This document shows positions 4,084-62,006 of a DNA stretch of 64,000 nucleotides, piece after piece. The notes under the pieces are model-generated. The model was not told the origin of the DNA. It saw only the letters and a list, made by a program, of their open reading frames with translations, and searched no databases. The DNA is taken from IMG/VR virus record IMGVR_UViG_3300031758_000036, positions 1 through 64,000 of that record; one strand, written 5' to 3'. Source of the DNA: a virus. Both the position numbers and the translations under genes were made by a program. The stretch's first letter is position 1; the number at the start of each line of letters is the position of its first letter.

Positions 4084-4502
4084 TGACCGAAGCAGAACAC
4101 GCCCATTGCTTAGCATATGCACTCAGAAATGTACTGAGCTACCCAGACAGCCAAAATGCCCTGGAATTGGCTCAAAAGACTTTAATCGCTTATTTCAGTA
4201 CACCACACCCTGAACTGAACAATGTTAATCATTCCAACTTCCCAGGTTGAAGAGTGGGAAGCAGAGTACAATCGCTTACAACTGAATAAGCAAATCTCAT
4301 TAGTCTCATTTTTGACTCATTGTGCAGCTACCTGGGGTTACGGCCAAGGCCTGACGGCAATGAACAATTTATTTAACATTGACCCCGAATGGCAATAAAA
4401 CTTCATTACACCTTAGTAACTTAGACAATACCGAAAACACTATTCAGATCACTTGACCCCTTTTCATTTGGCTGTAGCATATGTACGACAACAGCTCCAC
4501 CA

Positions 4503-4766
4503 ATGGAAATCAGTCTTAATCCCGATCATCATCCCATCATGCAATTGAAGGATGATTTGGAAAATTTCCTAGAAGCAATAGACCCACATCCGGGTAGCGA
4601 GTTATTCGTTACTGGTCACAGATTTATCCATCAGCTATCAGAGTTACATGATTTGTATGTGATGGAATATCACATCGAATACATCGAATCATGTTGGCAA
4701 ATACCCGAATTCATCAATCCAAACCCCAATCAATCAAAGAAAGAAAGTGGACAAAGAAAGAAATAG
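4503..4766 (+). CDS. Hypothetical protein
   Basis: 87-aa ORF preceded by a promoter-like TTGACC-N16-TAGCAT. Confidence 0.55.
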   Translation: MEISLNPDHHPIMQLKDDLENFLEAIDPHPGSELFVTGHRFIHQLSELHDLYVMEYHIEYIESCWQIPEFINPNPNQSKKESGQRKK

Positions 4767-4792
4767 ATAAATATTATCTATAGAGTATATAT

Positions 4793-5036
4793 TATATTAT
4801 CTATAGATAAAAGTTATAGAAGTAACTATTGGTTTAACCCCTCTTAATTCTTTTACTACTACTACACCGACATGACGAGGAGTGAATTACATAGAATCAT
4901 TTACGTCAGTAAATGGTTTTATGTAATTCAGCTCCGAAGGAATGTCACTTGAGTACGTAGACCGCAAGGGATCGGCTTTATTATTGCAAGTCTCAAGCGT
5001 AAGTACCTTAATGTTATTTTATCTATAGATAATATA
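4793..5036. repeat. Non-coding element bounded by 20-bp perfect inverted repeats, with an internal 22-bp hairpin
   Basis: TATATTATCTATAGATAAAA at 4793-4812 and its exact reverse complement at 5017-5036; hairpin at 4883-4930. Confidence 0.8.
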
Positions 5037-5091
5037 TAATCTATATAGTGTTATATTATTTATGCTATGGGGGAAGCTACCTCTGATCGCC

Positions 5092-5295
5092 ATGTCCACT
5101 GAACAATCAATGCCTACGGTTGCTGATGCCACCACAGCGCTGAAACAACTGCAATCAGACCTGTTGGAACTGATTGCTAACTATGAAAACCATTATGGCG
5201 TTTGCATCAACACCATCGATGTGAATCACCTGATAGCTATCGGCTACCCACGACGTACTGCCAGGGTATTGCTGACTGCTGAATTGATGGTTTGA
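5092..5295 (+). CDS. Hypothetical protein
   Basis: ORF 5062..5295; likely start MSTEQ. Confidence 0.55.
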   Translation: MSTEQSMPTVADATTALKQLQSDLLELIANYENHYGVCINTIDVNHLIAIGYPRRTARVLLTAELMV

Positions 5296-5581
5296 TCCTG
5301 GGGCTCGTCAGCGCTATCTAGGGGGCCCTGGAAGGTGCTTGTGGGGGCATTCAGGTGTACTGACACCGGAGGGGTTGTTTCAGGCCCCTTGCGGGCGATT
5401 TAAACGCCATGTTTCACTTCGTTGGCTGGTATCGCAATTTTCACGTTTTTTGATATTTCCTGAAAATTGAAAATTGTTACAAATTATACAGTCTCACCTG
5501 TCTCAAATCAGTCTCAAATCAGACTGGGCCTGGTTTTGACCTATTTATAGGTACCGTATTTTTGAGAAAATTTTTGCTGTT

Positions 5582-5974
5582 TTATGATCTTATTAATTGA
5601 CCGTCACTATAACCATTCTGGTACAATGGACACATTGACATGTATTGCCATATCAGTGTTCTGATACGTTGTACCTCCATTTGTGGTGTGTAATTATTAT
5701 TTCCTTTTGCCTGTTCCCACTCTAAAACATCCGCTTTGGTAAGTACTCTACCACTAGACTCATTGTTCAGATCACTCAGTTTAGTTTGAGCAGTCTCAAA
5801 TTGATCAATTAAGTCTAGGACACTAAAGACAGCATCACTAGAGATAGCACCGAGATCATTCATAGATACGGTGATTTGGTCAATTTGATAACTACCTATT
5901 GTCAGACCGCTAGCAATAAGTAGCCGAACTTGATCACCTTGTGACCAGCCATAGGTAGTATTTAAAGTCGCCAT
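5582..5974 (-). CDS. Putative structural protein (head-tail adaptor-like)
   Basis: 130 aa with LTKADVLEW; preceded on the minus strand by the late-promoter-like GGAACCATA motif. Confidence 0.45.
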   Translation of the reverse strand: MATLNTTYGWSQGDQVRLLIASGLTIGSYQIDQITVSMNDLGAISSDAVFSVLDLIDQFETAQTKLSDLNNESSGRVLTKADVLEWEQAKGNNNYTPQMEVQRIRTLIWQYMSMCPLYQNGYSDGQLIRS

Positions 5975-6046
5975 TTCCAGTGAAGTGTTGATACTTTATG
6001 GTTCCATTGGTGTTAGACTGGGTGAATAATATACCTTATAATATAT

Positions 6047-6588: not shown

Positions 6589-8313
6589 TCAGGCTGGCGT
6601 TAGCTGTTGCAGGGCCATTCCGAACGCTTCGGTGTACTGACTCTTTTCAGTATCGCTAAGCCGGCGGTTGCATGTGTCGGCAATCTGATCCACATTCAGG
6701 CTGCCATTGCTGAGCTTCAGTTGAATGGTGAAACGCGGGACATTATCAATCATTGCCAGAACGATAAAGTGCGTTTTACTTTTGATTCCCTTCCGGTAGG
6801 TATCTGCATTCCCCACACAATTCCGAACTGCCCGCCCCCACGCGGCAAGTTGATGGACATCTTGTGGCTGAAAAAACGACCACCGTTGCCCAGATAGATC
6901 CACCCGAACCGGCTCTGGAAAGAGATCCTGGTGCAATCTTTCATTAGGCGTAGACAGTTTGAAGCATTCTGCTGAAACGTAATCATGGAACTCCGTAATG
7001 CGCCAGCGGTTCGGTTTAGCAAGTTCGAGCGGTTGGTTTTCATCGTAGTTGCCGGTTTTCTTGGTTTGAGCGTAGTGAAGTTGATCGAGCATGCCAAGAG
7101 TATCTTCCAGTTCTCGCATGCGGCCAGTGGTCAGGCCAGTGGTGGAACTTCTGTCGTAATCAACCTTGCGGGGATTACCTGCCCATTCTTCCGTTAATTT
7201 GGCGACTTCTTTCTCCATGATTTGAATGAAAGAAGCTATTGGCGTGTTGTTGCGGATCCAGTCTTTGGTGGCTTTGCTTGCATCTGGGCCACGTTCGATG
7301 TGAGTTGTAAGGTTGTAAACTTGCTGGCAATGGTCTAGCGTCGCATCAGGATAGAATTGCAGAAAGTCAGTGAGCACATTGAATTTGTGACAGAAAGCCG
7401 CCCAAGGCCGTTTGACTGCTTGACGAGAATCGTTACCTGGATCCAGATAGACTTTCAAGCATTCGTCGAATGCCTTGTTAAGTTCTTTCCTGAAGAAAGG
7501 TGTATCCAGAGCTGACTTAGCCTTTTCACACTTGTGGCGCAGTAGCCAGTTAGTTGCTATTTCATTAAAACTGCGATCGTCGTCATTCTCAAGATCCGGC
7601 CAGAAGCAACGGCGAATGTCATTGTTTTCTTTAATACGCGTAAACATACCACCTTCATCATTCCATTGTCCCAGACTTGTCCTTAGGAGTCGTTTCCAAT
7701 CCTGATAGCGTTGGCGCTTATGGTAGTCAGTCCTGCCCCAACCTTTCAGTAGGTTCTCACCGGGAATTGCGTCAAAGCCTTTCAGAATGAGATCAGTGGT
7801 GACATGCACGGTGTGTTCGATCATCCCAAGGCGACCGTACTTTCTTTCAGCAGTGACACAAACGTCTGCAAGTCTAAGTACTTCAGAGTGTTTTTTCTTC
7901 CACCCAACTGAAGACTGCAGGATGCCACCAGCTCGCTGTACTGTTGCCGGAGTGTTTTTGTAAGCAATAGTGCAGCCAAACAGGTAATCCTTAGGATTCT
8001 GTTTCAGGTAGTTCGGATGCCAAAACCACAGCGCAGTCCAGACCGAAGACTTATGAACCAGAAGCCCAAAGCCCTTTTCATTGTTAATGGTCATTGCCCG
8101 ATCTTTTTCTGTTTCTTCGTTGATGCTGGTGGCGTAAGCCTTCTGTTCTTCTGTTGTAAACAGCTCAACAGGAAACAGGCCCTCGGGAACACCCAGCGAC
8201 ATACGCGGCGAACCGTCAGCCTTCTCTTTCTTGGCGGCCCGGATGATAGGCTTCAGCGCGGGGTCGTATTCTGCGACCTTGGCGGCCAGGGTGTGGGGGA
8301 GCTGGAAGTGCAT
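6589..8313 (-). CDS. PcfJ-like domain protein
   Basis: C-terminal L..WG..VRNCVG...Y...I......IVL....PRFTIQL......QI...CNR pattern; own promoter TTGCGC-N17-TACATT. Confidence 0.75.
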   Translation of the reverse strand: MHFQLPHTLAAKVAEYDPALKPIIRAAKKEKADGSPRMSLGVPEGLFPVELFTTEEQKAYATSINEETEKDRAMTINNEKGFGLLVHKSSVWTALWFWHPNYLKQNPKDYLFGCTIAYKNTPATVQRAGGILQSSVGWKKKHSEVLRLADVCVTAERKYGRLGMIEHTVHVTTDLILKGFDAIPGENLLKGWGRTDYHKRQRYQDWKRLLRTSLGQWNDEGGMFTRIKENNDIRRCFWPDLENDDDRSFNEIATNWLLRHKCEKAKSALDTPFFRKELNKAFDECLKVYLDPGNDSRQAVKRPWAAFCHKFNVLTDFLQFYPDATLDHCQQVYNLTTHIERGPDASKATKDWIRNNTPIASFIQIMEKEVAKLTEEWAGNPRKVDYDRSSTTGLTTGRMRELEDTLGMLDQLHYAQTKKTGNYDENQPLELAKPNRWRITEFHDYVSAECFKLSTPNERLHQDLFPEPVRVDLSGQRWSFFQPQDVHQLAAWGRAVRNCVGNADTYRKGIKSKTHFIVLAMIDNVPRFTIQLKLSNGSLNVDQIADTCNRRLSDTEKSQYTEAFGMALQQLTPA

Positions 8314-9374: not shown

Positions 9375-10082
9375 TTAATTAGCCATCGCATAACGGTTCT
9401 TGCTACGCCCGTGAGCATAGATCACTACGTTAGCAGAATTACCATCGCACAATGAACAAACGGAACATTCTGTTTTGTGGCCACGTTCATCGGACGCCGC
9501 ACAATGAACAGTCCCGACAGGATCAACAGAATCTACAGGTGTGACCAGATAGGTCTTCCAACCGTTAGTAGTTGCTTCCAAATAATCACTAAAACCATCG
9601 CAGGAGGCTTGTGCAATGCCTTTCATATATTGCGCCCACGGTTGACGCCATTGATGAGTGTAGGCTGTATGTGTACGGCTTCTCAGTAGCGGCTCAGTCC
9701 ATACATTAGCGGGTACCATTGCGCCATCGCCAGCAGAACCGATCCGCAGGGCGACATTATCAAATAGGTGCCAATCGTTACCGATGTGAGCATAGTTACC
9801 ACGCTTGTAGCAGTTCCATACACTGAGCGGGCCTTGATACCAGATAACGTAGCAAGTTGCTTCGTTATATCCAGCGTGCGTACAGTTGCCACATACTGAT
9901 CGACCGAGGCCATTTTTAAACGCCTCGTTTGGTTTAACATCTTGGCGCATGATCCACGTTTGAATCATCGCACCGGTTTTACTGTTACTACTGGAATCCT
10001 CAAATCCTGTTGCAATTACAACAATCGGAGCGCCGTCTAAGTTAGACGGACCCTCCCAAATAATGCGGCCGTTGTTGTTCAT
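9375..10082 (-). CDS. Cys-rich phage protein (gp88-like, possible Fe-S/metal binding)
   Basis: IWEGPS.LDG.PIVVIATG, SNSKTGAMIQTWI, VCGNC, CSVCSLC, IYAHG; promoter TTGCAA-N17-TAAATT. Confidence 0.7.
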   Translation of the reverse strand: MNNNGRIIWEGPSNLDGAPIVVIATGFEDSSSNSKTGAMIQTWIMRQDVKPNEAFKNGLGRSVCGNCTHAGYNEATCYVIWYQGPLSVWNCYKRGNYAHIGNDWHLFDNVALRIGSAGDGAMVPANVWTEPLLRSRTHTAYTHQWRQPWAQYMKGIAQASCDGFSDYLEATTNGWKTYLVTPVDSVDPVGTVHCAASDERGHKTECSVCSLCDGNSANVVIYAHGRSKNRYAMAN

Positions 10083-10269
10083 TTGGGTTAGCCCAGTTTT
10101 GGACTCTTCAAATTTAGCACACGATCCGGAAATTTGCAACCGGAAAATCCTGCAGGAAATTATTGACAAAAATTAGAGAAAATTAGCATTGAAATAATTG
10201 TTAACAAATAGCCGAATCGGGCTGCCTTGCGCTAGTATGGTGAGCGTGAATGAACCTGACTTCGTTCAT

Positions 10270-10419
10270 TCACGATCTCTCGCCTGGATCTACTATATTT
10301 ATCTCACACAGAATGCGGTCCTCAAACATAGAATCGCAGAGGTCCGTAGCCTCATCAGCCGAAGCATACGGACCATATACGTTGCCGTCCTCATCAGTAA
10401 CAACGTAGAACTGCGTCAT
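10270..10419 (-). CDS. Small acidic protein (49 aa, not in ORF track)
   Basis: MTQFYVVTDEDGNVYGPYASADEA...PGERS*; starts next to the previous stop and its TGA lies inside the repeat at 10240-10279. Confidence 0.65.
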   Translation of the reverse strand: MTQFYVVTDEDGNVYGPYASADEATDLCDSMFEDRILCEINIVDPGERS

Positions 10420-10761
10420 TTATCCATATACAATTTCCTTAAAACAAGCTACTTGGATAATAGCATCAGCAGCATATCCGTCAATATACCCATAATCATT
10501 TTCCTTAATTGCTGCCATTATATCGGCGCGAATATTATCAGAAATTTCAACTCTATTTTCAGTAATAAGTGCAATAGCACGCTCGGCATCTGACTTACAG
10601 ACTGTATGAATTTCAGCCCCCTCTTCACAAGAAAGGGAATAGATCTCGCTGACAGCATCATACTCTGCCTCGTCAACCCAGTAACCGATAGCATAGCCGG
10701 CGGTGTCGAAGATGTCAGCGAAGTCGTCGCTTGTTAGGTTGAAATTAATTGTAATTTGCAT
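10420..10761 (-). CDS. Hypothetical acidic phage protein
   Basis: IGYW...ID..AADAIIQVACFKEIVYG; GGAGG RBS. Confidence 0.75.
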   Translation of the reverse strand: MQITINFNLTSDDFADIFDTAGYAIGYWVDEAEYDAVSEIYSLSCEEGAEIHTVCKSDAERAIALITENRVEISDNIRADIMAAIKENDYGYIDGYAADAIIQVACFKEIVYG

Positions 10762-10764
10762 GGC

Positions 10765-10950
10765 TCAAACCTCCATCAGATCGGCGTAACCGGCATCCAG
10801 AGCATCCTCAAGCTCGGTTACTAGGCCATCAAAGTCTTCACTGGCTGGCAGAACTGTAATCAGAACGTCTACCAAACCACCGTATTCCTCGCGCAAACTA
10901 TTCAGGTAGTCTGCGCGATCGATGAAGCCGTTGTCGGTGTAAACAGTCAT
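10765..10950 (-). CDS. Small acidic hypothetical protein
   Basis: MTVYTDNGFIDRADYL...EDFDGLVTELED; promoter TTGCCA-N17-TATCAT. Confidence 0.7.
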   Translation of the reverse strand: MTVYTDNGFIDRADYLNSLREEYGGLVDVLITVLPASEDFDGLVTELEDALDAGYADLMEV

Positions 10951-11062
10951 GGGTGAACCCGGTTGACTCCCTAATGATAGCACTGCTGGCAAATGTTGGC
11001 AAGCCTGGCTCCGGCGCGTTGCGAATTGTGACCGTGAGCAGCAACCGTAGGGCCGCTCACGG

Positions 11063-11350
11063 TCACGCGTCTTCTGGCTTCAGTTCAGTGATCTGGCCGT
11101 CAACCTTGATGCGGAACACGCGGCGAGCATCGAAACTGCGCCATTGACCCAACTTGATATCCATGATCTTGAAGTTGTTAAGCTTCGTGACAGGATCCTT
11201 AATCGGGTGGCCAGTGCCCAGTACTTGACCCTTGTGCAGCGGATTGAACGTCAGTTGACGCTCGCTGCCATCGGCCTTGATGAAATTGACAGAAACCAAG
11301 TGGGAGCCGGCTTCTGAAATTTTTGCGCGGATAACTTCGTGGTTAGACAT
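11063..11350 (-). CDS. WYL-like / SH3 beta-barrel phage protein
   Basis: VSVNFIKADGSERQL...MDIKLGQWRSF; stop codon supplied by the repeat arm. Confidence 0.75.
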   Translation of the reverse strand: MSNHEVIRAKISEAGSHLVSVNFIKADGSERQLTFNPLHKGQVLGTGHPIKDPVTKLNNFKIMDIKLGQWRSFDARRVFRIKVDGQITELKPEDA

Positions 11351-11480
11351 GGGTGGTTCCCTGTTCTGGAAAAATCCTAGCACAGATCGGGCCGGGTGCG
11401 GACGCGAGCTGATCGTGAGCAATGACCGTAGGGCCGCTCACGCTCACGGTGTGTTATCATTCAATCAGGAGGGAAGACCC

Positions 11481-11639
11481 ATGTCAGTCACTGAATCTTT
11501 CGAACGCTTCCTTGCTCTGGAGGAACAATCCCTGGAGCGCATCGAGACCCTGCTGGCCAGCATCCGTGAGGATATTGCCTGGCTGGAAGCCCTGGATGCC
11601 GATGAACAGGCGCTGGAGGTGACATGTAACGAGGTGTGA
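11481..11639 (+). CDS. Small acidic coiled-coil protein (inverted cassette)
   Basis: AGGAGG RBS, extended -10 TGnTATCAT, TGA inside the left arm of repeat 11636-11674. Confidence 0.75.
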   Translation: MSVTESFERFLALEEQSLERIETLLASIREDIAWLEALDADEQALEVTCNEV

Positions 11640-11678
11640 CCGTGATCAATGACCGTAGGGCCGCTCACGCTCACCATT

Positions 11679-11885
11679 TCACCTAACGGAAAAATCCAAT
11701 GAACGCCACCGAATTGAACGCCAAAGCTCAAGAATTGCTGGACGCGATCTGGGGACCGATCTCGGAATTTCAAGCCATGCGTAACGACTCTGGCCCCGTT
11801 TCCTGGGATGCAGCCAGTGAGGCCCGTAACTGGCTTGATAAGCTTTGTGAAATCGAGTACGTGCTAGAGTCTTGATCGTGAACAA
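11679..11885 (-). CDS. Possible small basic protein
   Basis: ORF fills the space between two repeats, but the start lies in a repeat and there is no clear RBS. Confidence 0.35.
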   Translation of the reverse strand: MFTIKTLARTRFHKAYQASYGPHWLHPRKRGQSRYAWLEIPRSVPRSRPAILELWRSIRWRSLDFSVR

Positions 11886-11906
11886 TGACCGGAGGGCCGC
11901 TCACGC

Positions 11907-12179
11907 TCACTCGTAATCGCGTCGCCGCGTGCTATCCCATTCAGCCTGCTCGCAACGGGCAGTGTGCCACAGGTCGCGTAAATCGTAGGCGAACAGATTT
12001 AGAATTTCGTAGGTGACGCATTGCAGCCCCTCTTGGATGCATTCGCTGTCAACGTCATCTAGGACACTAAACACCCAGGCTGCATCAATCTCAGTGAGAT
12101 CGCTGGGAATGTCAAAGTCGGACAGGTCGTCTAGATGGGCCCACAGGGGGCTGAGATCGACTGCAGTGGCTGTGGTCAT
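11907..12179 (-). CDS. Acidic hypothetical early protein
   Basis: GGAG RBS, TTGCGC-N17-TATGCT promoter, stop in the repeat arm. Confidence 0.75.
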   Translation of the reverse strand: MTTATAVDLSPLWAHLDDLSDFDIPSDLTEIDAAWVFSVLDDVDSECIQEGLQCVTYEILNLFAYDLRDLWHTARCEQAEWDSTRRRDYE

Positions 12180-12277
12180 TGGATTGGCTCCATTGGATGT
12201 GACTAGCATAGCCTGTTTGGCGGCCAGGCGCAAGTGCTGTAACTGATCGTGATCAATGACCGTAGGGCCGTTCACGC

Positions 12278-12517
12278 TCATGCCTTGGAGCGTAGCACCG
12301 GCTGGCTGTAGGTGTCAACAACCAGCTCCAACCACTGCCGCGCAACGGTTCCGGCTTTGCAGATGTCGCGAGCCAGGAGCACGGTCTCACGTGAGACCGT
12401 ATCGGCAGTGCCGCTGATGAGAGCCCAGGCATCGGCCCAGGTGGTAGGGGTGGCCTGCAGGACCTCATAAGCCTGCAGGATTTCAGCCTTGGTGGAGCGG
12501 GAAGTGATCTGAGCCAT
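12278..12517 (-). CDS. Hypothetical early protein
   Basis: MAQITSRSTKAEILQAY; stop in the repeat arm. Confidence 0.75.
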   Translation of the reverse strand: MAQITSRSTKAEILQAYEVLQATPTTWADAWALISGTADTVSRETVLLARDICKAGTVARQWLELVVDTYSQPVLRSKA

Positions 12518-12583
12518 GATGGGTAGTCCCTGTTGGATGGTGAGCGTGATCAATGACCGTAGGGCCGTTCGCGATCACAATTC

Positions 12584-12627
12584 GGAAAATTCCTGGGGAA
12601 AATTCCTGGGGAAATTCCTGGGAATTT
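12584..12627. repeat. Short tandem repeat of about 12-13 bp, three copies
   Basis: (GGAAAATTCCTGG)-type units. Confidence 0.8.
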
Positions 12628-12899
12628 CAGTAGCGGATTTCTCCGGGCAGAACGGGACGCAAGTTCAGCGGCTCACGGGCGGATTCATAGCAGTCCAACT
12701 CGGTCTTCAATTGCCTGGCTTTCTCCCGCATCAGCGCGACATCGGCAAGCGGTGCGCGGTTCACTAGAACCTCCCCTTCAAACAGGGTATCATTCAGTAA
12801 TCCGACCTTGGCGATAGCATCCTCGATTGCCAGCCAGGCTTCGTCAAAGGCCTGACTGTAGGCGGCGGTGGCGTGAGCGGGGCAGAGTGTGGCTGTCAT
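12627..12899 (-). CDS. Hypothetical early protein
   Basis: GGGAG RBS, TTGACA-N16-TAGACT promoter. Confidence 0.7.
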   Translation of the reverse strand: MTATLCPAHATAAYSQAFDEAWLAIEDAIAKVGLLNDTLFEGEVLVNRAPLADVALMREKARQLKTELDCYESAREPLNLRPVLPGEIRY

Positions 12900-12990
12900 G
12901 GTGGGTTCTCCCGGTAACTTGGTCAGTCTACAGGATGGTGGGCAGATGTCAACGGGTGAGCGTGATCAATGACCGCAGGGCCGTTCGCGA

Positions 12991-13404
12991 TCACGCTGCG
13001 AGCCGCTCTGCCTGCTGCAGGAACCAGTTATCGGCATCTAAGCGCATCGGCCACTCCTCAGAGCCCTCCCAAGGCGCCGTGGTGGTATGCCACTCCTAAT
13101 CAGTCTGGGAGATGCCCTCACCCGGCACGAAGGCCCGTAGCAGGGCGTTCAGGCGGCTCTTAGTGGTGGATGTGCGGTACCCGCAATCAAACAGGGAGAT
13201 CCTCATGATGCCGGGTTCGACAAGTCCGATCCGATGGCCGTGCAGCAGGATCTCAACGTGCCGATGGTGGCTGAGGGTGCCACCGATGCCGTGGTGTTTA
13301 ACGGTGACTTCGGTGTTGCCGCACTTGAGCAGTCGGCCGGCCTTGTGGGAGTCGCTCAGGGCGGAACGGATGGCTTGGATCATCCGGGCTTCAGTCTTGC
13401 GCAT
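12991..13404 (-). pseudogene. Phage early protein interrupted by an in-frame TAG at 13096-13098
   Basis: MRKTE...LHGHRI...TTKSRLNALL...ISQTD*EWHTT...RLAA*; frame stays open for 34 more sense codons to a TGA in the repeat arm; promoter TTGACA-N18-TAGTCT. Confidence 0.6.
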
Positions 13405-13748
13405 GGGGGTGTTCCCTCTGGGGTTAACAGGAGACTAGCGTGGATTGAATCGAGGTGTCAACAGGATGGCGATCGTGAGCATTGACCGTAGGGCCGTTCG
13501 CGATCACGGTTTGCCCCTGAAGGCGAAAATTTGGACCTCGCTGGTTCGGCGCTCCGGAACGGCATGATCGTGAAGTCCCTGAATTACTAAATCCGGCCAG
13601 ATCGCCGCCCTGAGCTGCAATGTGAGCGTGAAAACAATCGACCGCAGGGCCGTTCGCGATCACGGTTCCTGATTAGCTGGTGAGCGGTGCTTGCAGGATG
13701 AGCGTGAACAGCCCCTGTCACCCGCCCACCCGCCCCACGATCACAATT

Positions 13749-13806
13749 CGTAACATAAGGATTACTGATGTTACAATTCCGCAACATAAGAGTTGCTGAT
13801 GTTACA
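13749..13806. promoter_or_regulatory. Two palindromic operator-like sites, 31 bp apart
   Basis: ATAAGGATTACTGAT at 13755 and ATAAGAGTTGCTGAT at 13786, each followed by GTTACA. Confidence 0.6.
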
Positions 13807-13862
13807 GTGCTGTCGCGGATTGTGACATAACGGTAGCGTTATGGTGCTATGGCGTTTGCATT

Positions 13863-13887
13863 AAAAAGGCCCTGAGATTTCAGGGCC
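13863..13887 (-). terminator. Rho-independent terminator
   Basis: GGCCCTGA stem-loop followed by a T-run on the minus strand. Confidence 0.7.
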
Positions 13888-13897
13888 ATTCTTGTCG

Positions 13898-14236
13898 TTA
13901 ATTCTCGCTGATTAGGTACCGGCAAAAATATAGAGAATCCTCGGGGATCTCGTTATTTTCTGGGACGTTCTCGATTGAACACCACTTGGTGCCGTCTGAT
14001 TCCTCACTCCTCCAGGTGGAAGGGGCGAAGTCAATGCAGGCAAGATCCTCTCGGATCAGTTGCATCAATTCAGTCCGATTGACGCACCAATGAAGCCAGG
14101 CCTCGATATTCCGTCCGCTTGGTGATACCTCGGCACGAATGTACCAGTCGGTATCGATCGAGCAGTAGCTGAGGGCGTTCTCCAACATCTTGCCGTCAAT
14201 CAGTGTCGCCTTGGCGGTGGTCGGTGCTGCGATCAT
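13898..14236 (-). CDS. Hypothetical early protein
   Basis: 112-aa ORF, leader GGAATCATCCAA-ATG. Confidence 0.7.
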   Translation of the reverse strand: MIAAPTTAKATLIDGKMLENALSYCSIDTDWYIRAEVSPSGRNIEAWLHWCVNRTELMQLIREDLACIDFAPSTWRSEESDGTKWCSIENVPENNEIPEDSLYFCRYLISEN

Positions 14237-14290
14237 TTGGATGATTCCAGAAAGTAAGAAAGGGGGGGACCCTTAAGGGTCCCCTGTTGC

Positions 14291-14581
14291 TCACTGCCAG
14301 TCGCGCCAGGCTTCGTGATTCATTTGCCAGAGCAGGTCGCCGATGGCGCCTGTCTTCAGGAAGTCGAACCACTGGGTTTTGCAGGCGTATTCTGCGCGGC
14401 CCATCAGGCCGGGCAGGTCGCTGAGGTCAGCCAGCAGCAGCGGCGGCAGTCCGGCATCGTAGCCGGCTACAACAGCATCCTGCCGGAGGTCCAGGGCAGC
14501 CCAGAGCAGGGCGACAAGGGCGGAGCGACCGTCATCACGGGCGGCCTTGAAGGCGTACCGGACGGTGTTAGCGATGGTCAT
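14291..14581 (-). CDS. Hypothetical early protein
   Basis: 96-aa ORF, leader GGAATCATCCTTC-ATG, hairpin downstream at about 14265-14284. Confidence 0.7.
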   Translation of the reverse strand: MTIANTVRYAFKAARDDGRSALVALLWAALDLRQDAVVAGYDAGLPPLLLADLSDLPGLMGRAEYACKTQWFDFLKTGAIGDLLWQMNHEAWRDWQ

Positions 14582-14719
14582 GAAGGATGATTCCGTTGTT
14601 AAGGTGCGTGCGATCGGTTTCCCTCTCGCATGCCTGTATCCTAGCGCCCGTGCCCGCCGATCGGGGCCATTGTGAAGGATTGCAACAATGATCTTTCCTT
14701 ATCAGTCGCTGCGCGACAG

Positions 14720-14813
14720 ATCAGCAACCCTGATCGATCAGCACCGCTGATGTCACAAGCGTGTAACATCAGCATCGCTTATGTTACAAATCCGACACAT
14801 TAGCATTGCTGAT
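14720..14813. promoter_or_regulatory. Array of palindromic operator-like sites ATYAGC-N3-SCTKAT
   Basis: Copies at 14720, 14737, 14768 and 14799; the last three are spaced exactly 31 bp apart. Confidence 0.65.
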
Positions 14814-15065
14814 GTGTGATCGTGGGGGTTATGGCGTACGGGTGTGGCGCCACGATCACGATGCGGTGCTGCGCTCCTGCCTGAGCCTGTCACTGGGCCT
14901 CCAGCAAGAGCTGGCGGCGACTAAATTCCACCGAGTTGCCGGCGGATTCGCCAGGTACCCCCACCCCGATTTTCGGATTCTCTCCTCTAGGTTATCCCCC
15001 CGCAAAATTTTTCAAAAAATTTGAATTGGGACACTAAGCAATAAACCAGTCTTACAGCGGTACAG

Positions 15066-15248
15066 ATGATTCATCCAGAGTTACCGGAGGGAATCAAGGG
15101 TATTTTAGAGGAGTTACAGCATTCCAGTATCAGTTTAGTATGGTGTAAGGGGTGTGGGTGTAACAGACCAGTGAACAGTAAGTATGTGGAATACCTTGGT
15201 GATGGTATTGAGGGGTGTCGATTTTGCCAATCGGAGTATTATAAATAG
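15066..15248 (+). CDS. Small zinc-binding protein
   Basis: CKGC...CRFC motifs. Confidence 0.6.
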   Translation: MIHPELPEGIKGILEELQHSSISLVWCKGCGCNRPVNSKYVEYLGDGIEGCRFCQSEYYK

Positions 15249-15295: not shown

Positions 15296-15805
15296 GTGAG
15301 TAATTCTCCATTATTACCATATTATAATGGATTAATATTAAGTCGTAGTGGGCAGACGGTCAGTGTTGTGGATGGCAGGATAGAAGCGGATACCAGCAGT
15401 GGGAGTAAATATTTAGTAAAGGTATTTGTATCACAAGGTGCTGAGATTGTCAATATACCAAAGGAAGTAGAATTAGGGCAGGAGATACCTGGAGCGAGTG
15501 GATATGCGTACAGTTATAAGGGATATGCGCTGAGTGTTTCAGTTGTAAGCAGTGGATTTGAGTTAGATGCCAGTATTGGATTACAGGGTAATGTAAGTGG
15601 ATTAACGTTTAGCGATATTACGGGTCATCCGGGGTATCTCAAGAATGGGGTCAGGGGAGACATTTTACTGGGTTTAGATAAGGTGAATCATTATCAGATT
15701 ATAAATACTGGTGGAGTATATAATGGTGTTGGAATTGACGAGTTAATATATAATGAAATAAGTGGAGTACCGATCAGGCTGAGTGTTGGCGGGGTGTATA
15801 TATAA
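15296..15805 (+). CDS. Putative head-closure/neck protein
   Basis: Beta-rich 169 aa at the start of the late cluster; function inferred from position. Confidence 0.45.
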   Translation: MSNSPLLPYYNGLILSRSGQTVSVVDGRIEADTSSGSKYLVKVFVSQGAEIVNIPKEVELGQEIPGASGYAYSYKGYALSVSVVSSGFELDASIGLQGNVSGLTFSDITGHPGYLKNGVRGDILLGLDKVNHYQIINTGGVYNGVGIDELIYNEISGVPIRLSVGGVYI

Positions 15806-53221: not shown

Positions 53222-53947
53222 ATGCCCGATTCAATCCCTAATCTCGCCGGCATTGCAACCAAAGATCTGGTTGAAACTATTGGCGGCGGTAGTTTTAAGG
53301 CTAGTTACATCAACTGGGCTCGGACCTTTAACCTGCTGCATGAGCATGCACCCGGTTGGTGCCTTGAGATCATGACTGCGCCCGATGGAGGCCAGGTCTT
53401 TCGTGCTCCTGGTAACGGCGGTTACCTGATGCTGCGCTTCGTTCATTTGGACGGGACTGTGCTACCAGAAGTCCCCCAAGCAATCATGGACACCCGTAAC
53501 CAGCCGATTGCTTTCGATAAGATCAGCGCCCGTGATGTGACAGACACTCATCGTCGCGGTGGCTGCATGGCGGCTGCTATGACATTTGGCTTGGCACATG
53601 AGCTGTGGGCCAAGATGCCACTGGAGAGCGGCTACGCGGGCCAGGAGGCTGCTGGGGTAGCAGTGGCGCCACCGGCCTCCACAGGCGCCTCCAAGGCCCC
53701 TCTGCAGGTTGATCCGCAGCCAACCATGGAAGACTTCCTGGAGGCCTGTCTGGGGAAAGGATTGACCACTCTGGCTGCTGACAAATTGATTAATGTGATC
53801 GGTGACAATTATGCAGGCGCGTTGAAGACACTTGCCAGCAAAACGCCTGAATGGATTGCTGAGCAAAACGCTCAAGCCGAACCCGCCCCAAAGCCCGCGA
53901 AGACCACAGCGAAGAAGTCGACGAAACCGGACCCGAGCGACTATTAA
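53222..53947 (+). CDS. Sak/Rad52-like single-strand annealing protein (DUF1071-like)
   Basis: SYINWA, AIMDTRNQPI, ARDVTDTHRR..AAAMTFGLAHELW. Confidence 0.75.
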   Translation: MPDSIPNLAGIATKDLVETIGGGSFKASYINWARTFNLLHEHAPGWCLEIMTAPDGGQVFRAPGNGGYLMLRFVHLDGTVLPEVPQAIMDTRNQPIAFDKISARDVTDTHRRGGCMAAAMTFGLAHELWAKMPLESGYAGQEAAGVAVAPPASTGASKAPLQVDPQPTMEDFLEACLGKGLTTLAADKLINVIGDNYAGALKTLASKTPEWIAEQNAQAEPAPKPAKTTAKKSTKPDPSDY

Positions 53948-54119: not shown

Positions 54120-54920
54120 ATGGCTCCCATTATCACAACGGACGAAATCACGTTTTGGATGAATGCAGCGGGAAGCAAGCCAATTCTGTCCAAGGATGAA
54201 GTCTGCTTAATTGCACGTAAGATTCGCTCCTCCGAGCCTGGCAGTTTAGCCTATAAGCGTTGTGTGAATAAATTGGTTGCACACAACCTGAGATTGGTTA
54301 TTCGATCTGTTCATTTGCATATGGGCAGTAAAACACGCAAGAATTGGGGCGGCGTCGAAACACTTGACTTTCTCCAGGCCGGTGCGCTAGGGCTAATCAG
54401 AGCGGCAGAAAAATATGATCCTGAGATGGGATATACGTTTGCTACATACGCAACGTTCTGGATTCGTTCCGCCATTGGTCGATATGGGATTAAGGCATCC
54501 AGCATCTTTCACATACCAGAGAACGCGTGCAGAGATGCTTATGCTTTTGAGAAGCATGGATTTATCAGGAAGAAGTCAAAAGAAGAAAGTATGCATCTGA
54601 CGCAAATGGTGCGTTCGGCACAGTCCGCTATTTCGATTGATGCTCCAATAAGAGAAAACGCCGACATATCCATTGTCGACGCAATTGAAAGCACTTATGC
54701 CCCGCCCCATTCAGGCCAGGGCCGCTTCTCCCCAGAAATGGAGGAAGCTATGAAGATCGCTAATCTGACAGCAGATCAAGTCCTGATTTTGGAATGGACT
54801 TTTATTGATGAAATGAAAGTCAAAGACATTATTAAAATGACGGACATGACCAAGAATCAGGTCTGCCACCTCCGCAAAACCGCTCTGCATAAGCTCAAGT
54901 TAGCAATGGTTGCGGTATAA
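54120..54920 (+). CDS. RpoD-like (group 2 type) sigma factor
   Basis: LVAHNLRLV, DFLQAGALGLIRAAEKYDPEMGYTFATYATFWIRSAI, ISIDAP. Confidence 0.92.
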   Translation: MAPIITTDEITFWMNAAGSKPILSKDEVCLIARKIRSSEPGSLAYKRCVNKLVAHNLRLVIRSVHLHMGSKTRKNWGGVETLDFLQAGALGLIRAAEKYDPEMGYTFATYATFWIRSAIGRYGIKASSIFHIPENACRDAYAFEKHGFIRKKSKEESMHLTQMVRSAQSAISIDAPIRENADISIVDAIESTYAPPHSGQGRFSPEMEEAMKIANLTADQVLILEWTFIDEMKVKDIIKMTDMTKNQVCHLRKTALHKLKLAMVAV

Positions 54921-56880: not shown

Positions 56881-57732
56881 ATGGCTGCAGTAGCCTACAA
56901 TCAGCCTGATTATCAGTACAGAAGGGAATCGGGAGAAAACCAGAGTTATTTAAAGAATATCCTGGTAAGCCCTGCTCATTACAAAGCTTCAAAGAAAAGG
57001 CGCTTTTTCCCTACCATTAACATGGAAATAGGGTCTGCTTTGCATTGCCTTGTACTGGAGGGTGAGGAAGAATTCAGTAAAAGATATGTAATGAAACCCG
57101 AAGATATTGCCTTAAACACAAAAGAAGGAAAAGAATGGAAAGCAGCGCAAACACATAAAACAATATTGACTAATACTGAAAAAGAACGAGCATGGGATAG
57201 CGTGCATGGAATGGCAAATTCTTTGTCTAAACTTGATTGGTTTAATCAAGATTTGCCAGATTATCGTAAGTACAACGAGTTATCTATTTACTGGGAAGCG
57301 GATGGCATAGAATGCAAAGGCAGGCTTGATCGACTCGTTGATATGGGCGATCATTTACTGGTACTCGATCTGAAGACAACTGATTCTGTCGAATATAATA
57401 CGTTTGTGAAGAAGTTAGTAGGAGGCATGAATTACTTATTCCAATCAGCATGGTATTCAGAGGCGGCGAGCCTGGCGTATGATAAGCCCTGCAAATTTGT
57501 ATTTGCTGCTATCGAAAGAACGGAACCTTGGACGTTGGCTCTGTTTGAGATATCCGACGAGATGATGGAGGAGGGGAACCGGCAGATCAAGCGTGCGCGG
57601 CAACTATTAAAGAAATCCTTAGACACTAAGGAGTGGCCTAGCCCAGATGTGCGTTATAATGTATTGAGCCTGCCAAAGTGGTACCAGTCACCAGTGGCGG
57701 ATTATCATCCAGAATTTGAGGACTTGTTCTGA
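56881..57732 (+). CDS. PD-(D/E)XK exonuclease (RecE/ExoVIII-like)
   Basis: SPAHY, IGSALHCLVLE, CKGRLDRL, LDLKTT, Y..Q.AWY. Confidence 0.88.
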   Translation: MAAVAYNQPDYQYRRESGENQSYLKNILVSPAHYKASKKRRFFPTINMEIGSALHCLVLEGEEEFSKRYVMKPEDIALNTKEGKEWKAAQTHKTILTNTEKERAWDSVHGMANSLSKLDWFNQDLPDYRKYNELSIYWEADGIECKGRLDRLVDMGDHLLVLDLKTTDSVEYNTFVKKLVGGMNYLFQSAWYSEAASLAYDKPCKFVFAAIERTEPWTLALFEISDEMMEEGNRQIKRARQLLKKSLDTKEWPSPDVRYNVLSLPKWYQSPVADYHPEFEDLF

Positions 57733-59270: not shown

Positions 59271-59472
59271 ATTTCCTGATCCAAATTTCCCTCTAATCGT
59301 AACAGAAGAGGAGGATGGCTCGTTTACACTGGAGTGGGATGACCTTCATCCTATTACATCTGTTTTCAATAACTATACGGAGCAAGACTTTATCGACATG
59401 CTGACCGCTGGAGCAATCGATACCCTACAGGACAATGAAGAATTAGATGCATCAAAACAGGTTGAAGACTGA
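59263..59472 (+). CDS. Small acidic hypothetical protein
   Basis: VTEEEDGSFTLEWD; coupled to the terminase gene. Confidence 0.6.
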   Translation: MNKFPDPNFPLIVTEEEDGSFTLEWDDLHPITSVFNNYTEQDFIDMLTAGAIDTLQDNEELDASKQVED

Positions 59473-62006
59473 TGGCTACTAGAGCTGGTAAAATCTTTCT
59501 TGAAAAAGCAGGATCAGACCGCGAAATGGTTCGCGAGCTGCGAAAAGCTAAGACGCAAAGGAAAGAAGGTGGCCAGCAAATAGTACTGCATCAGTTTATC
59601 AAATCGGTATCTCCTAACTATAAATTTTACAAGGTCCACGCAGAATTAACGAAACAACTGCAGCGAATCATTGACGGAAAATGCAAGCGGTTAATTATTC
59701 AAATTCCACCAAGGACTGGTAAAAGTTTTCTGTCCTCTAAGTTATTTCCAGCAGCATATTTACTGGCCCATCCAGATCGATATGCTGGCATCGTCTCCTA
59801 TAGCGCAGAGCTGGCTGAAGGCTTCTCGCGGTCTGCCAGAGATTACTACAGGCAGGCTGGAGGGACATTTGACCCATACAAGCAAGCCGTAAACGATTGG
59901 GGTACCCAAGGCGGTGGCGGGTTATGGGCGTCGGGTGTTGGAGGCGCTATCACCGGCCGCTCAGGCCATTTGCTGATCATTGACGACCCTGTCAAGAACA
60001 GGGAAGACGCTGACAGCCCAAGGGTGATGGAAAAACTATGGGACTGGTACACATCGACTCTTTACACTCGCCTTGAACCAGAAGTCGGATCAATTGTTGT
60101 GATTCAATGCATGACCGGTGATACAAATGTAACCATGAGCGATGGTTCTTGCCGCAGGCTGGATACAATTAGGCCAGGCGATGAAGTCTTGTCATGGAAG
60201 AATGGATCTGCTGTTACTAGAACTGTACTGAATCATAAATGTCAGGGAGAGGACGATGTATTTGAGATAAGAACCGCGAGTAGTAGGGTGAAGGCGAATG
60301 CGAGGCATCCGTTTTTAGTGCAACGCGAAGATGGGGCCCATGAATGGGTCAGGGTTGAGGATTTACGGATTGGCGATTCCCTGGTGGCGTCATCCCGCCT
60401 TGAATTTGACAATCCCGCGCAAGTAACCGAGCAACAGGCTTGGCTTCTTGGTTATATGTTTGGAGATGGCTGGATAACCAGTCGAACCGGTACGCGGCTA
60501 GATGCCAATGGTAAAAGGTATCCAAGATCAGGATTCGTAACATGTGTTGCATGTCCCAAACCAGACGAGGAAAGGGAAAAGATTATGACAGCGTTTCAAT
60601 CGATATGGGGTTTTAGGCCGAAACTGACTCGTTATGGCTACTACAGGACCGAGAGGCAGGAGCCAGGGAAATGGTTCACTGCTTTTGGGCTTACTGGAAC
60701 AGCCAAGACCAAGAGGGTGCCATTGTGGATGTACTCTCAGCCTGCTGAGATTCGCCAAGCCTTTTTATCTGGATATCACGAAGCGGATGGCGCTACATTT
60801 AGTACGGGCAAGGCCGCAGGTAGGTATACGTTTGGCTCATGTAACCCAGATCTGATCAACGATATTAGACAAATAGCAAGGGGATTGGGATATTCAGTCA
60901 CGAATATTAGCGTATATGAAAGCATGATACAAGCTCCCAACAGTCCTGCGCCAGTATTATCTAAAAATTGCAATTTACAATTCAACCCATGGTCAAAAAA
61001 CGAATCAGAATTTCGTACTCATAAAATCAGATCAATTAAAAATATTGGGAGGGAATTAGTATATGACATTCAAGTCGAGGACACCGAATGTTTCATAGCA
61101 GATGGACTAGTGTCTCACAATACTCGCTGGAGCGAAAATGACCTGATTGGCAGGCTGATTGAGTCTGAAATGAACGTATCCGAAAAAGGCAGAGAAAATT
61201 GGACAATACTTGACCTGCCTGCTATATCCGAGGATGCTGGTTCGCGACCGCCACTGCCAGAGCATTGCGATGTTGTACCTGATTGGCGAGAAGAGTCTGG
61301 GCTAGCACTGTGCCCACAGCGATATGGTATAGAAGAATACGAACGCATACGTGAAGCGATAGGCACCAGGGATTTTGCTGCTTTGTATCAGCAGCGACCA
61401 GCACCTGAGGGCGGCAATATGTTTGACCCTAGTTGGTGGCAATACTATGATCACGGCACTGAGCTGCCGGAGTTCCAAAGGTTAATGCTTAGCGTTGACT
61501 GTACTTTTACTAACTCTAGTTCTAGTGACTATGTTGTTGGTAGCGTAGTAGCCCAAGCCGGCAATCGATTTTATGTAATCGATATGGTCAGGGAGAAAAT
61601 GGATATCATTGCAACGATATCAATGATATCAAGAATGTATAACAAACATGCACTTAGCGGCACGATTATTGAACTTGCAGCGTCTGGTTATGCTGCTTAT
61701 CAAATGCTAAGCAAAAAAGTGCCAGGTTTAATTGGTTTCAAGCCAGAGAAATCAAAAACAGCTCGCGCTGCTGGTATCGTCCCAATAATCGAAGCAGGTA
61801 ATGTGTATTTACCAACAAGCGCACCTTGGCTAGATGCCTTTGTGAATGAATTCAGCCTATTCCCAGCAGCAAAGAACGATGACATCGTCGACTCTGTTGG
61901 CATGGCTATTAATTACATGTCTCAAAGATCGGCTCCCGTGATGACAGAAGTTAGCTGGGGCCGTGGAACAACTTTACCCTATAATTATAATAACAGTGTA
62001 ATCTAA
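59472..62006 (+). CDS. terL: Terminase large subunit containing an intein
   Basis: IPPRTGKS (Walker A), LIIDDPVK (Walker B), ALYQQRP, SVDCTF, NDDIVDS. Confidence 0.95.
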   Translation: MATRAGKIFLEKAGSDREMVRELRKAKTQRKEGGQQIVLHQFIKSVSPNYKFYKVHAELTKQLQRIIDGKCKRLIIQIPPRTGKSFLSSKLFPAAYLLAHPDRYAGIVSYSAELAEGFSRSARDYYRQAGGTFDPYKQAVNDWGTQGGGGLWASGVGGAITGRSGHLLIIDDPVKNREDADSPRVMEKLWDWYTSTLYTRLEPEVGSIVVIQCMTGDTNVTMSDGSCRRLDTIRPGDEVLSWKNGSAVTRTVLNHKCQGEDDVFEIRTASSRVKANARHPFLVQREDGAHEWVRVEDLRIGDSLVASSRLEFDNPAQVTEQQAWLLGYMFGDGWITSRTGTRLDANGKRYPRSGFVTCVACPKPDEEREKIMTAFQSIWGFRPKLTRYGYYRTERQEPGKWFTAFGLTGTAKTKRVPLWMYSQPAEIRQAFLSGYHEADGATFSTGKAAGRYTFGSCNPDLINDIRQIARGLGYSVTNISVYESMIQAPNSPAPVLSKNCNLQFNPWSKNESEFRTHKIRSIKNIGRELVYDIQVEDTECFIADGLVSHNTRWSENDLIGRLIESEMNVSEKGRENWTILDLPAISEDAGSRPPLPEHCDVVPDWREESGLALCPQRYGIEEYERIREAIGTRDFAALYQQRPAPEGGNMFDPSWWQYYDHGTELPEFQRLMLSVDCTFTNSSSSDYVVGSVVAQAGNRFYVIDMVREKMDIIATISMISRMYNKHALSGTIIELAASGYAAYQMLSKKVPGLIGFKPEKSKTARAAGIVPIIEAGNVYLPTSAPWLDAFVNEFSLFPAAKNDDIVDSVGMAINYMSQRSAPVMTEVSWGRGTTLPYNYNNSVI
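60108..61121 (+). mobile_element. Intein with a LAGLIDADG homing endonuclease (338 aa)
   Basis: IQ|CMTGDT start, block B ANARHPF, LLGYMFGDG and FLSGYHEADG, end VYDIQV..FIADGLVSHN|TRW. Confidence 0.95.

Follow-up and report, generated by a model that had tools for sequence, protein, structure and literature searches.

A co-oriented array of 39-nt imperfect palindromes between small genes of either orientation in a freshwater cyanosiphovirus

The window analyzed here is a stretch of 64,000 nt (positions 1 to 64,000) of IMGVR_UViG_3300031758_000036, a complete virus record of 85,756 bp. The virus is a freshwater cyanobacterial virus related to Synechococcus siphovirus S-CBS2, with 66-67% portal-protein identity to S-CBS2 and to the Synechococcus siphoviruses S-CRES1-3. 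Its genes include those for a 1572-aa tape measure, tail fibres, a large terminase with an intein, a DnaG primase, a DnaB-like helicase, a ligase, a class II ribonucleotide reductase, two sigma-70-like factors and an HNH nuclease. The genome that hosts the array is that of a lytic-type S-CBS2-like cyanosiphovirus. Just upstream of the structural gene block, which starts at 15066, lies an array of about 2.6 kb that is mostly divergent from the block and contains nine copies of a repeat (11028-13663). The G+C content at 12-14 kb, in the region of the array, is 0.57 compared to 0.47 for the genome. This 2.6-kb array is a hyperplastic early-gene region, with the following parts.

11028..11066, + strand: repeat R1, the sole copy with fully paired arms; single-stranded DNA fold of -14.6 (top strand) and -16.7 (bottom strand) kcal/mol
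11063..11350, - strand: g2, 95 aa, weak WYL_2/Sm-like match (phrog_2267, E 4e-6)
11409..11447, + strand: repeat R2, left boundary of the gA cassette
11452..11460, + strand: extended -10 promoter-like element TGTTATCAT, 4 nt beyond the right arm of R2
11467..11472, + strand: Shine-Dalgarno sequence AGGAGG, 8 nt ahead of the gA ATG (11481)
11481..11639, + strand: gA, 52 aa, acidic; stop codon TGA (11637-11639) in the left arm of R3
11636..11674, + strand: repeat R3, in the array orientation although between two + strand genes
11699..11875, + strand: gB, 58 aa; stop codon TGA (11873-11875) in the left arm of R4
11872..11910, + strand: repeat R4
11907..12179, - strand: g3, 90 aa; stop codon in the right arm of R4
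12233-12228 and 12210-12205, - strand: promoter-like TTGCGC and TATGCT of g3, separated by a 17-nt spacer, read by eye
12243..12281, + strand: repeat R5, a sub-type hybrid with a GTTCAC core and a GCTCAT end
12278..12517, - strand: g4, 79 aa; stop codon in the right arm of R5; 77% identity to a homolog in contig L011
12540..12578, + strand: repeat R6
12627..12899, - strand: g5, 90 aa; own stop codon 49 nt before R6; 59% identity to a homolog in L011
Beginning 3 nt beyond the left arm of R7, - strand: g5 promoter, TTGACA-16-TAGACT
12956..12994, + strand: repeat R7
13096..13404, - strand: g6, 102 aa, Pfam Kyano_Gp96 (E 8e-14); 71% identity to a homolog in contig L016
13461-13456 and 13437-13432, - strand: promoter-like TTGACA and TAGTCT of g6, separated by an 18-nt spacer, read from the sequence
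13469..13507, + strand: repeat R8
13622..13663, + strand: repeat R9, the last copy, 3 nt longer than the others

The repeat is a 39-nt imperfect palindrome, (G)TGAnCGTGAnCAAy(n)GACCGnAGGGCCGyTCrCGnTCAy. The arms, TGAnCGTGA and TCrCGnTCA, are mirror images of each other, and the centre, CAAy(n)GACCGnAGGGCCG, is asymmetric. Searches by pattern and by profile both found nine copies, 9/9 on the same strand; the rest of the 85,756-bp genome has no copy. With a 20-mer of the repeat and up to 3 mismatches, 8 matches were obtained compared to 0 in 100 shuffles. A CRISPR-like array was considered and dropped, as the spacers are genes and there is no cas gene; iterons or pac sites were dropped as expressed genes separate the copies. 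A phage-sigma promoter within the repeat would require a conserved -35/-10-like pair, which is absent, and the spacing of a CRP-type TGTGA-N6-TCACA site is wrong.

Outside the window, relatives were reached by the pattern of the repeat core in IMG/VR and metagenome contigs. As in the window, every copy of an array pointed the same way: 7/7 in L011, L157 and L159, 4/4 in L016, L018, L161, L168 and L169, and 9/9 in L162. Single copies were found at the ends of seven further contigs (L010, L013, L019, L155, L156, L158 and L166), and public contigs break at the repeats. The structural module of the window is also present in eight contigs (G001-G005, L019, L156 and L162) with 33-94% protein identity, and the direction of the repeat relative to this module is the same in the window and in 8/8 of them. 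Most genes of L157 and L159 run in the + direction of the repeat and most of those in the window in the - direction. Because gene direction varies in this way, the polarity of the repeat follows the genome and not transcription.

The 45-nt repeat query produced only partial matches (E = 9) in 50,697 phage records, S-CBS2 and S-CRES3 included, and blastn with 10700-13700 produced zero matches in the same records. Among 401 genomes from the phylum of Vulcanococcus genome G006, the repeat was absent save for one chance-like match with 1 mismatch in G006. This absence from the genomes of that phylum and from the phage records marks the repeat as a phage element of an uncultured lineage and not a host repeat. 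A scan of genome contigs with the pattern returned at least 120 stretches; among the matches listed all were single and almost all came from high-GC, non-cyanobacterial sequences, and they were taken as chance. In viral contigs, the protein encoded at 15296-15802 found no match. Among the papers listed by the literature searches, supplementary files aside, none describes the repeat, and 13-mers of its core occur only in one unrelated preprint.

Conservation of the repeat is concentrated in its primary sequence. GACCGnAGGGCCG and the half-sites of the arms are near-invariant across deeply diverged phages, and the core is about 85-90% identical between phages with structural proteins that are only 33-60% identical. 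The middle base of the loop is free (G 23, C 8, T 6 and A 5 among 42 unique copies). The variable arm positions 5 and 36 are paired in 13/42 unique copies and positions 11 and 30 in 7/42, and compensatory changes are absent. As the variable arm positions show no covariation, the sequence and not the pairing appears to be what is conserved. Repeats are more alike within an array than between arrays (0.158 versus 0.213), a difference reached by 0 of 2000 permutations. Repeat sub-types go with cassettes: R1-R4 are like those of L162, R6-R9 are like those of L016 and R5 is a hybrid. The array of the window is a mosaic of two repeat sub-types. The R6 sub-type is also present in L016, L162, L168, L010, L013, L019 and L156, with the free loop base as the sole difference. 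In a near-identical pair of contigs, differences were found at 4/164 repeat positions compared to 23/1003 cassette positions; since the repeats diverged no faster than the cassettes in this pair, ongoing conversion is not evident.

Of eight array proteins scanned, four had no match in Pfam (E ≤ 0.1) or PHROG (E ≤ 0.01), and g6 was the only one above the Pfam cut-off. The initial annotation described one inverted cassette within a minus-strand array, with its own promoter element and ribosome site, and this ORF (11481-11639) with its TGTTATCAT and AGGAGG can be read directly in the sequence. It was correct in placing the stop codon in the opposite arm of the repeat, as the TGA at 11637-11639 lies inside GTGA (11636-11639), the first four bases of the left arm of R3, and in stating that both flanking repeats, R2 and R3, keep the array orientation (+ for the repeat family). 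The number was too low, however: two adjacent cassettes are rightward, for gB (11699-11875) is also on the + strand and has its stop TGA in the left arm of R4.

gA is not a chance ORF, as five database relatives with 69-77% identity are all 52 aa long; 28 of 52 alignment columns are invariant. The seven matches listed for gB are 64-97% identical to it and six of them are 58 aa and one is 59 aa long, although the 97% match, which has no source label, may be the window's own genome or sample. Judged by these relatives, gA and gB are small conserved proteins, and their fixed lengths would fit a stop codon that is provided by the conserved repeat arm. Contigs of 2393 nt and of 4261 nt occur among the relatives of gA as well as among those of gB, which makes it probable that the two genes move as a pair. 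The contigs that encode the relatives (P0002-P0017) reach 78-104 kb. Searches of Pfam, PHROG and Atlas gave no lead for gA and none for gB; scores in the Atlas feature search were ≤0.79 for both. The gA relative P0004 had no match by tblastn in the 50,697 phage records, and the candidate stretches from back-translated searches for gA and gB relatives (A2 and A3 in viral contigs, A2 in metagenome contigs) were all unconfirmed. One weak match in the 151 genomes of the Vulcanococcus (G006) family, inside a 619-aa frame (E 4.7e-4), was taken as chance.

The use of a repeat arm as a stop codon is common to both strands. The minus-strand genes g2, g3 and g4 take their stop codon TGA from the strand opposite to TCA in the TCAC or TCAT end of R1, R4 and R5, respectively. 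In total, 5 of the 7 called cassette genes of the window stop inside an arm, and the 3' end of every gene adjoins or enters a repeat, in both orientations. In the other arrays, ten + oriented ORFs terminate inside the next repeat. Promoter elements adjoin the arms in both directions as well, as in TCAC-ccg-TTGACA-16-TAGACT for g5 and TCAC-N4-TGTTATCAT for gA, and similar arrangements (TCA-N2-7-TTGACA or TCAC-G-TGCTATAnT) are found in other arrays. TTGAC occurs within 16 nt outside the right arm in 11/58 unique copies and outside the left arm in 3/58, against a background of 0.017 per 16-nt stretch. The TGnTATCAT of the gA promoter recurs in the promoter of g1 (TTGCCA-17-TATCAT with TG, 11002-10974, minus strand). 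The conserved 39 nt have no -35/-10 pair; the promoter-like elements are outside the arms and differ between cassettes. A module thus starts directly beside an arm, and its end lies at or inside the following one.

Two genes lack the room for a promoter of their own, as only 24 nt separate R3 from the gB ATG and 22 nt separate R6 from the g4 ATG. Thus gA-R3-gB and g5-R6-g4 look dicistronic and read through the repeat; gB is probably cotranscribed with gA through R3, and g4 with g5 through R6, judging from this spacing. Since read-through at R3 and R6 is implied for gB and g4, the repeat is probably not a full terminator. A scan for intrinsic terminators flagged only R9 (minus strand) of the nine copies, and its second match was a partial stem at the right arm of R2. 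A U-tract after the stem is absent from the nine window copies save R9 on the minus strand. In L157 and L162, T-rich runs follow several copies in the + direction. A search of 10000-15200 against Rfam returned three matches, all below the gathering score and none on a repeat.

As boundaries, the GTGA...TCAC ends behave much as the initial annotation had supposed when it called them junction points that accept DNA in either orientation: they are module boundaries tolerant of either gene orientation in 10 co-oriented arrays with genes on both strands. The arms themselves may be the crossover points. Gene content is mosaic across arrays. The window and L011 have only g4 and g5 in common, in swapped order, and the window and L016 have g6 alone in common; the g2 homolog in L162 sits outside the array of that contig. 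Among 49 inter-repeat intervals there were 20 homologous pairs, 16 with the same and 4 with the opposite orientation relative to the repeat. In a curated set of nine gene families common to non-redundant arrays, three occur in both orientations relative to the repeat. Genes of a 47/48-aa family are + in L157 and L159 and - in L162, with 65% amino acid identity (E 1e-16); the DNA aligns Plus/Minus with 87% identity over 62 nt and the flanking repeats align Plus/Plus. The g4 family is + in L159 and - in the window, L011, L162 and L168; the DNA match is 88% over 59 nt on the minus strand, and window g4 is 36% identical to the gene of L159. A third family, named for its conserved FWAD motif, is - in L011 and + in L169 (33% identity, E 2e-12).

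L159 and L162 have the 47/48-aa and g4 families in the same left-to-right order, with the intervening repeats unturned. The cassettes were thus flipped or inserted singly and not by inversion of a block. Curated cassette genes with independent support number 8 in the + and 13 in the - orientation relative to the repeat, while the orientation of the unsupported small ORFs is our own reading. At the level of sequence, these comparisons establish that content, order and gene orientation vary between phages while the polarity of the linker is fixed.

The genome was searched in six frames for enzymes that might move the cassettes. Phage_integrase (PF00589), Resolvase and Y1_Tnp (PF01797) domains were absent; as a control, PF00589 was matched in 14/14 genomes. 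A RecE-type exonuclease VIII is encoded at 56881-57729 (phrog_412, E 2e-58; DUF3799, E 6e-27). The match of 53222-53944 to a Sak-like annealase is marginal (E 1.7e-4) and falls just short of the Pfam cut-off.

Our reading of the array, which we hold to have an even chance of being right, is that the repeats are PeSL-like linkers with mirror-image arms that bound promoter-plus-gene modules, and that these modules are shuffled by recombination. The 39-nt repeat would be the linker between modules, each consisting of a small ORF with its ribosome site and a 5' leader or promoter. Modules would be exchanged, reordered and lost through homologous recombination between the ~40-bp linkers, most likely driven by the RecE-like exonuclease of the phage and the putative annealase. 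PeSL-mediated shuffling has been described in T4-type phages (PMC2839356, PMC4122927), where the proposed exchange needs no more than the recombination system of the phage itself and a homology of about 50 bp (PMC2839356). Each module would lie between inverted copies of ~10 nt, formed by the right arm of the repeat before it and the left arm of the repeat after it, and rare recombination or template switching in these arms could flip or insert a module and leave the asymmetric core unturned. Flipping or insertion at the level of the arms would be the origin of the rightward gA and gB. The hairpin probably also acts as a 3' structure, an attenuator or stabiliser, of transcripts from either strand. 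Several points weigh on this reading. No recombinant junction, circle or minority orientation was seen, with runs X4, X7 and X10 represented by contigs that end at the repeats. Because R3 is unturned between two + strand genes, a single arm-to-arm inversion of gA-gB is insufficient and separate events or a later repeat insertion are needed. In addition, arms of ~10 nt are short for annealase-driven recombination, which counts against it. The core is more conserved than would be necessary for a passive substrate of recombination, which suggests a sequence-specific factor outside this explanation.

Such a factor is the centre of a real if unlikely alternative, in which a dedicated and as yet unrecognised protein (a new kind of recombinase or nuclease, or a regulator, of the phage or the host) binds or cuts the repeat, and cassette capture, excision and insertion either way are catalysed at a site of fixed polarity, possibly the folded bottom strand, in the manner of an integron without IntI. 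The near-invariance of GACCGnAGGGCCG and the half-sites with one free loop base, the lack of covariation and the polarity fixed relative to the structural module in the window and eight relatives are what a protein site would predict. Folding adds to this. A hairpin is predicted on both strands, with recurrent mismatches at positions 5-36 and 11-30, and the bottom strand folds better in 38/49 copies with RNA parameters and 39/49 with DNA parameters compared to 146/245 shuffles, a modest asymmetry among copies that are related and not independent. A position that is A/C in the top strand forms a G:T pair in the bottom strand, and both features resemble the strand bias of attC sites as described in PMC5027507. 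The same source reports that recombination of the other strand of a palindromic single-stranded site would insert a cassette reversed. Against a dedicated protein, six-frame searches gave neither a tyrosine or serine recombinase nor a Y1 transposase, no conserved candidate gene specific to the repeat-bearing phages was identified, and the R boxes of attC (RYYYAAC/GTTRRRY) are absent. A related proposal, which we consider doubtful, makes the 39-nt element the site of an integrase-less, integron-like cassette system; the mirror arms would be the crossovers and the asymmetric core, read on one strand, would be locked to the polarity of the genome, with capture, excision and insertion of promoter-bearing cassettes either way carried out by an unrecognised protein or by the phage annealase on folded single strands. 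That the repeat acts mainly in RNA, as an attenuator, a stabilising hairpin at 3' ends or a processing site of the RNase III/E type between cistrons of early transcripts, with shuffling as a by-product of 40-bp repeats, is rather unlikely in our judgement. Gene 3' ends do adjoin or enter repeats in both orientations, the palindromic arms permit a hairpin in transcripts of both strands, and gA-R3-gB and g5-R6-g4 look like dicistronic units that are split by a repeat. The recurrent unpaired positions in a long stem may resemble the RNase III sites of phage T7, and the minus-strand RNA, which corresponds to most genes of the window, is the more stable. However, compensatory changes and Rfam matches are lacking, folding z-scores are unremarkable (-1.5 to +0.6) for 8/9 copies on the + strand, only 1/9 copies is terminator-like, and repeat polarity in L157 and L159 compared to the window does not follow transcription.

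The initial annotation had preferred a role in DNA over one in termination or processing. Three gene families in both orientations and arms without covariation support the first half of that statement; the opposition between the two roles did not hold, as T4-type PeSLs combine both (PMC2839356), and the data would also fit an added RNA role for the 39-nt repeat, as a processing site or a hairpin at 3' ends. We regard as very improbable that the repeat is a small mobile element of the MITE, REP or PATE type that was inserted strand-specifically between existing genes, with gene orientation never changed. Such an element would explain why R3 lies in standard polarity between two co-oriented + strand genes, and why an interval of L159 holds two genes with no repeat between them when L162 has only one of the two; the imperfect palindrome is also of REP-like size. 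Yet a stretch of 2.6 kb in the 85.8-kb genome contains 9/9 copies, a Y1 transposase is absent, the 401 genomes of the G006 phylum have only the one chance-like match, and the genome-contig matches listed were single and almost all from high-GC, non-cyanobacterial sequences. ORFs need the TGA of the arm as a stop codon and the relatives of gA are equal in length, which indicates that gene ends and repeat are co-adapted, and homologous cassettes are flipped between unturned repeats.

The linkers of our preferred reading are best compared to PeSLs. In both systems a repeated intergenic motif is concentrated among the small ORFan early genes of a hyperplastic region, modules are self-expressed because a stem-loop-forming sequence comes together with a sigma-70-type promoter that serves the following gene, and relatives differ by insertion, deletion or replacement of modules at the motifs; a dedicated recombinase is known in neither. 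The conserved motif of PeSLs includes a consensus sigma-70 promoter preceded by AT-rich sequence, the stem-loops vary and have been shown to terminate, and recombination between neighbouring motifs yields mini-circles (PMC2839356, PMC4122927). In contrast, what is conserved here is a 39-nt imperfect palindrome whose asymmetric core is invariant; promoters are outside the repeat and variable, and 2/8 cassettes of the window have none. The repeat has one polarity relative to the genome with genes either way, and the carrier is a cyanosiphovirus and not a T4-like myovirus. The array works like a PeSL array, yet it is outside the strict PeSL family because the promoter is not the conserved part and the phage is not T4-like.

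Morons of lambdoid phages are independent promoter-gene(-terminator) units that lie between genes in either orientation, are solitary and have no shared conserved repeat. The units described here are likewise promoter-gene units in either orientation, but a shared conserved repeat bounds them. REP/BIME elements with RAYT transposases and IS200/IS605-derived palindromes are intergenic imperfect palindromes of ~35-40 nt with strand-specific polarity that can stabilise upstream mRNA. The 39-nt repeat is similar in size, palindromy, intergenic position and strand-specific polarity, but there is no Y1 transposase and the copies are in one array and not dispersed. The array also resembles integrons in that co-oriented imperfect-palindrome sites lie between cassettes of one gene each, stop codons fall inside these sites or close to them, a G:T pair and unpaired positions may favour the bottom strand, and the array has one polarity relative to the genome, features of attC arrays in PMC5027507 and PMC11023631. 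However, there is no IntI or tyrosine recombinase here, and in the aligned copies the ends are (G)TGA...TCA(C) and not AAC/GTT R boxes, whereas attC boxes have the form GTTRRRY ... RYYYAAC with conserved AAC/GTT triplets (PMC5027507). The sequence of the site is conserved here and the structure in attC (PMC5027507, PMC11023631), and the cassettes of the array have their own promoters, with about 4 in 10 of the supported ones in the + orientation. The array is not an integron and not a REP/RAYT system.

A comparable block is found at the corresponding position in S-CRES3 (OQ587941.1; locus L180), where small minus-strand genes lie upstream of the structural genes. It contains four copies of a TTGACC...TACTA-type promoter with a GC-rich hairpin in the spacer. 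The repeated promoter and hairpin make the S-CRES3 block PeSL-like, although the sequence of its repeat is unrelated to the 39-nt element.

Accessory early genes of phages, which often serve host takeover or anti-defence, turn over fast, and the mechanism is largely unclear beyond the T4-type PeSLs. The 39-nt repeat array would be a second linker system, unrelated in sequence and found in a different type of phage and host, with three traits not seen in PeSLs: an almost invariant core, a polarity fixed to the backbone, and cassettes flipped singly between unturned repeats. The 39-mer can be used as a handle to fish accessory-gene arrays from freshwater viromes and to seek the factor that reads the repeat. 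It is also a handle to test whether short mirror-image arms suffice for orientation-free gene capture.

The region of gA and gB is also represented in run X4, where a contig of 589 nt covers 11288-11876 with 0 differences. The word depth of the gA-gB contig in this run was 4.6 compared to 22 and 40 for its backbone neighbours, values that are depths and not copy numbers. There is a hint here that only some of the genomes with the backbone of the window carry the gA-gB cassettes.

In the contigs that match the window in sequencing run X4, word depth, which is not a copy number, varied strongly along the cassette array and its surroundings. It was 22 over positions 10000-11203, 4.6 over 11288-11876, 6.5 over 11906-12247 and 40 over 12528-14855 (within the stretch 10000-15200). 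These strong differences along the array are compatible with a population that has a common backbone and differs in its cassettes. Directly after the repeat copy R6, between that copy and the stop codon of the minus-strand cassette gene g5, lie 3.1 tandem copies of GGAAAATTCCTGG (12584-12622).

Repeats next to small genes were also seen in related phages. In the isolate Synechococcus phage S-CRES3 (OQ587941.1), a promoter-like unit is repeated in four copies over positions 4348-5984. On the reverse strand each unit reads TTGACC, a GC-rich hairpin and TACTA, and the units sit between the small minus-strand genes gp64-gp70. Compared with the promoter-early stem-loop (PeSL) cassettes of T4-type phages, these promoter-hairpin units form a PeSL-like arrangement, here in an isolate related to the phage of the window. 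One gene of the related contig L011, which has a seven-copy repeat array, was as follows.

L011 1765-2259, plus strand: cysteine-rich open reading frame, predicted to encode a membrane helix; it starts from TTGACA-17-TACACT immediately after a repeat.

This frame continues uninterrupted across a degenerate copy of the repeat at roughly 2003-2047.

The interval that separates the array from the structural genes of the window holds palindromes that resemble operators, of the TGTAACATnAGnAnTnCTGATGTTACA type, in two sets at 13743-13806 and 14732-14815. They are arranged as 31-nt tandem units and also recur as inverted copies about 940 nt apart. The sets enclose two genes, and a third gene opens the rightward block.

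13898-14236, minus strand: first enclosed gene.
14291-14581, minus strand: second enclosed gene.
15066-15248, rightward: 60-aa zinc-ribbon protein (CxxC...CxxC).

The palindrome sets may serve as the region that controls the divergent early and late units. The zinc-ribbon protein had no PHROG match; in seven related contigs (G001, G003, G004, G005, L019, L156 and L162) its gene has the cassette array on one side and the structural genes on the other.

Elsewhere in the window, the phage carries the following genes.

6589-8313, minus strand: 574-aa protein whose C-terminal domain is PcfJ-like (E = 1.4e-5, at the Pfam cut-off).
54120-54917 and 62007-62633: two phage-encoded sigma-70-like factors.
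59472-62006: large terminase, split by an intein that contains a LAGLIDADG-like domain.

Other known members of the PcfJ-like family come from conjugative plasmids. In the complete genome record (G000), the 'direct terminal repeat' measures exactly 127 bp. Instead of a physical repeat at the genome ends, this length could reflect an overlap left by the assembler in a circular assembly.
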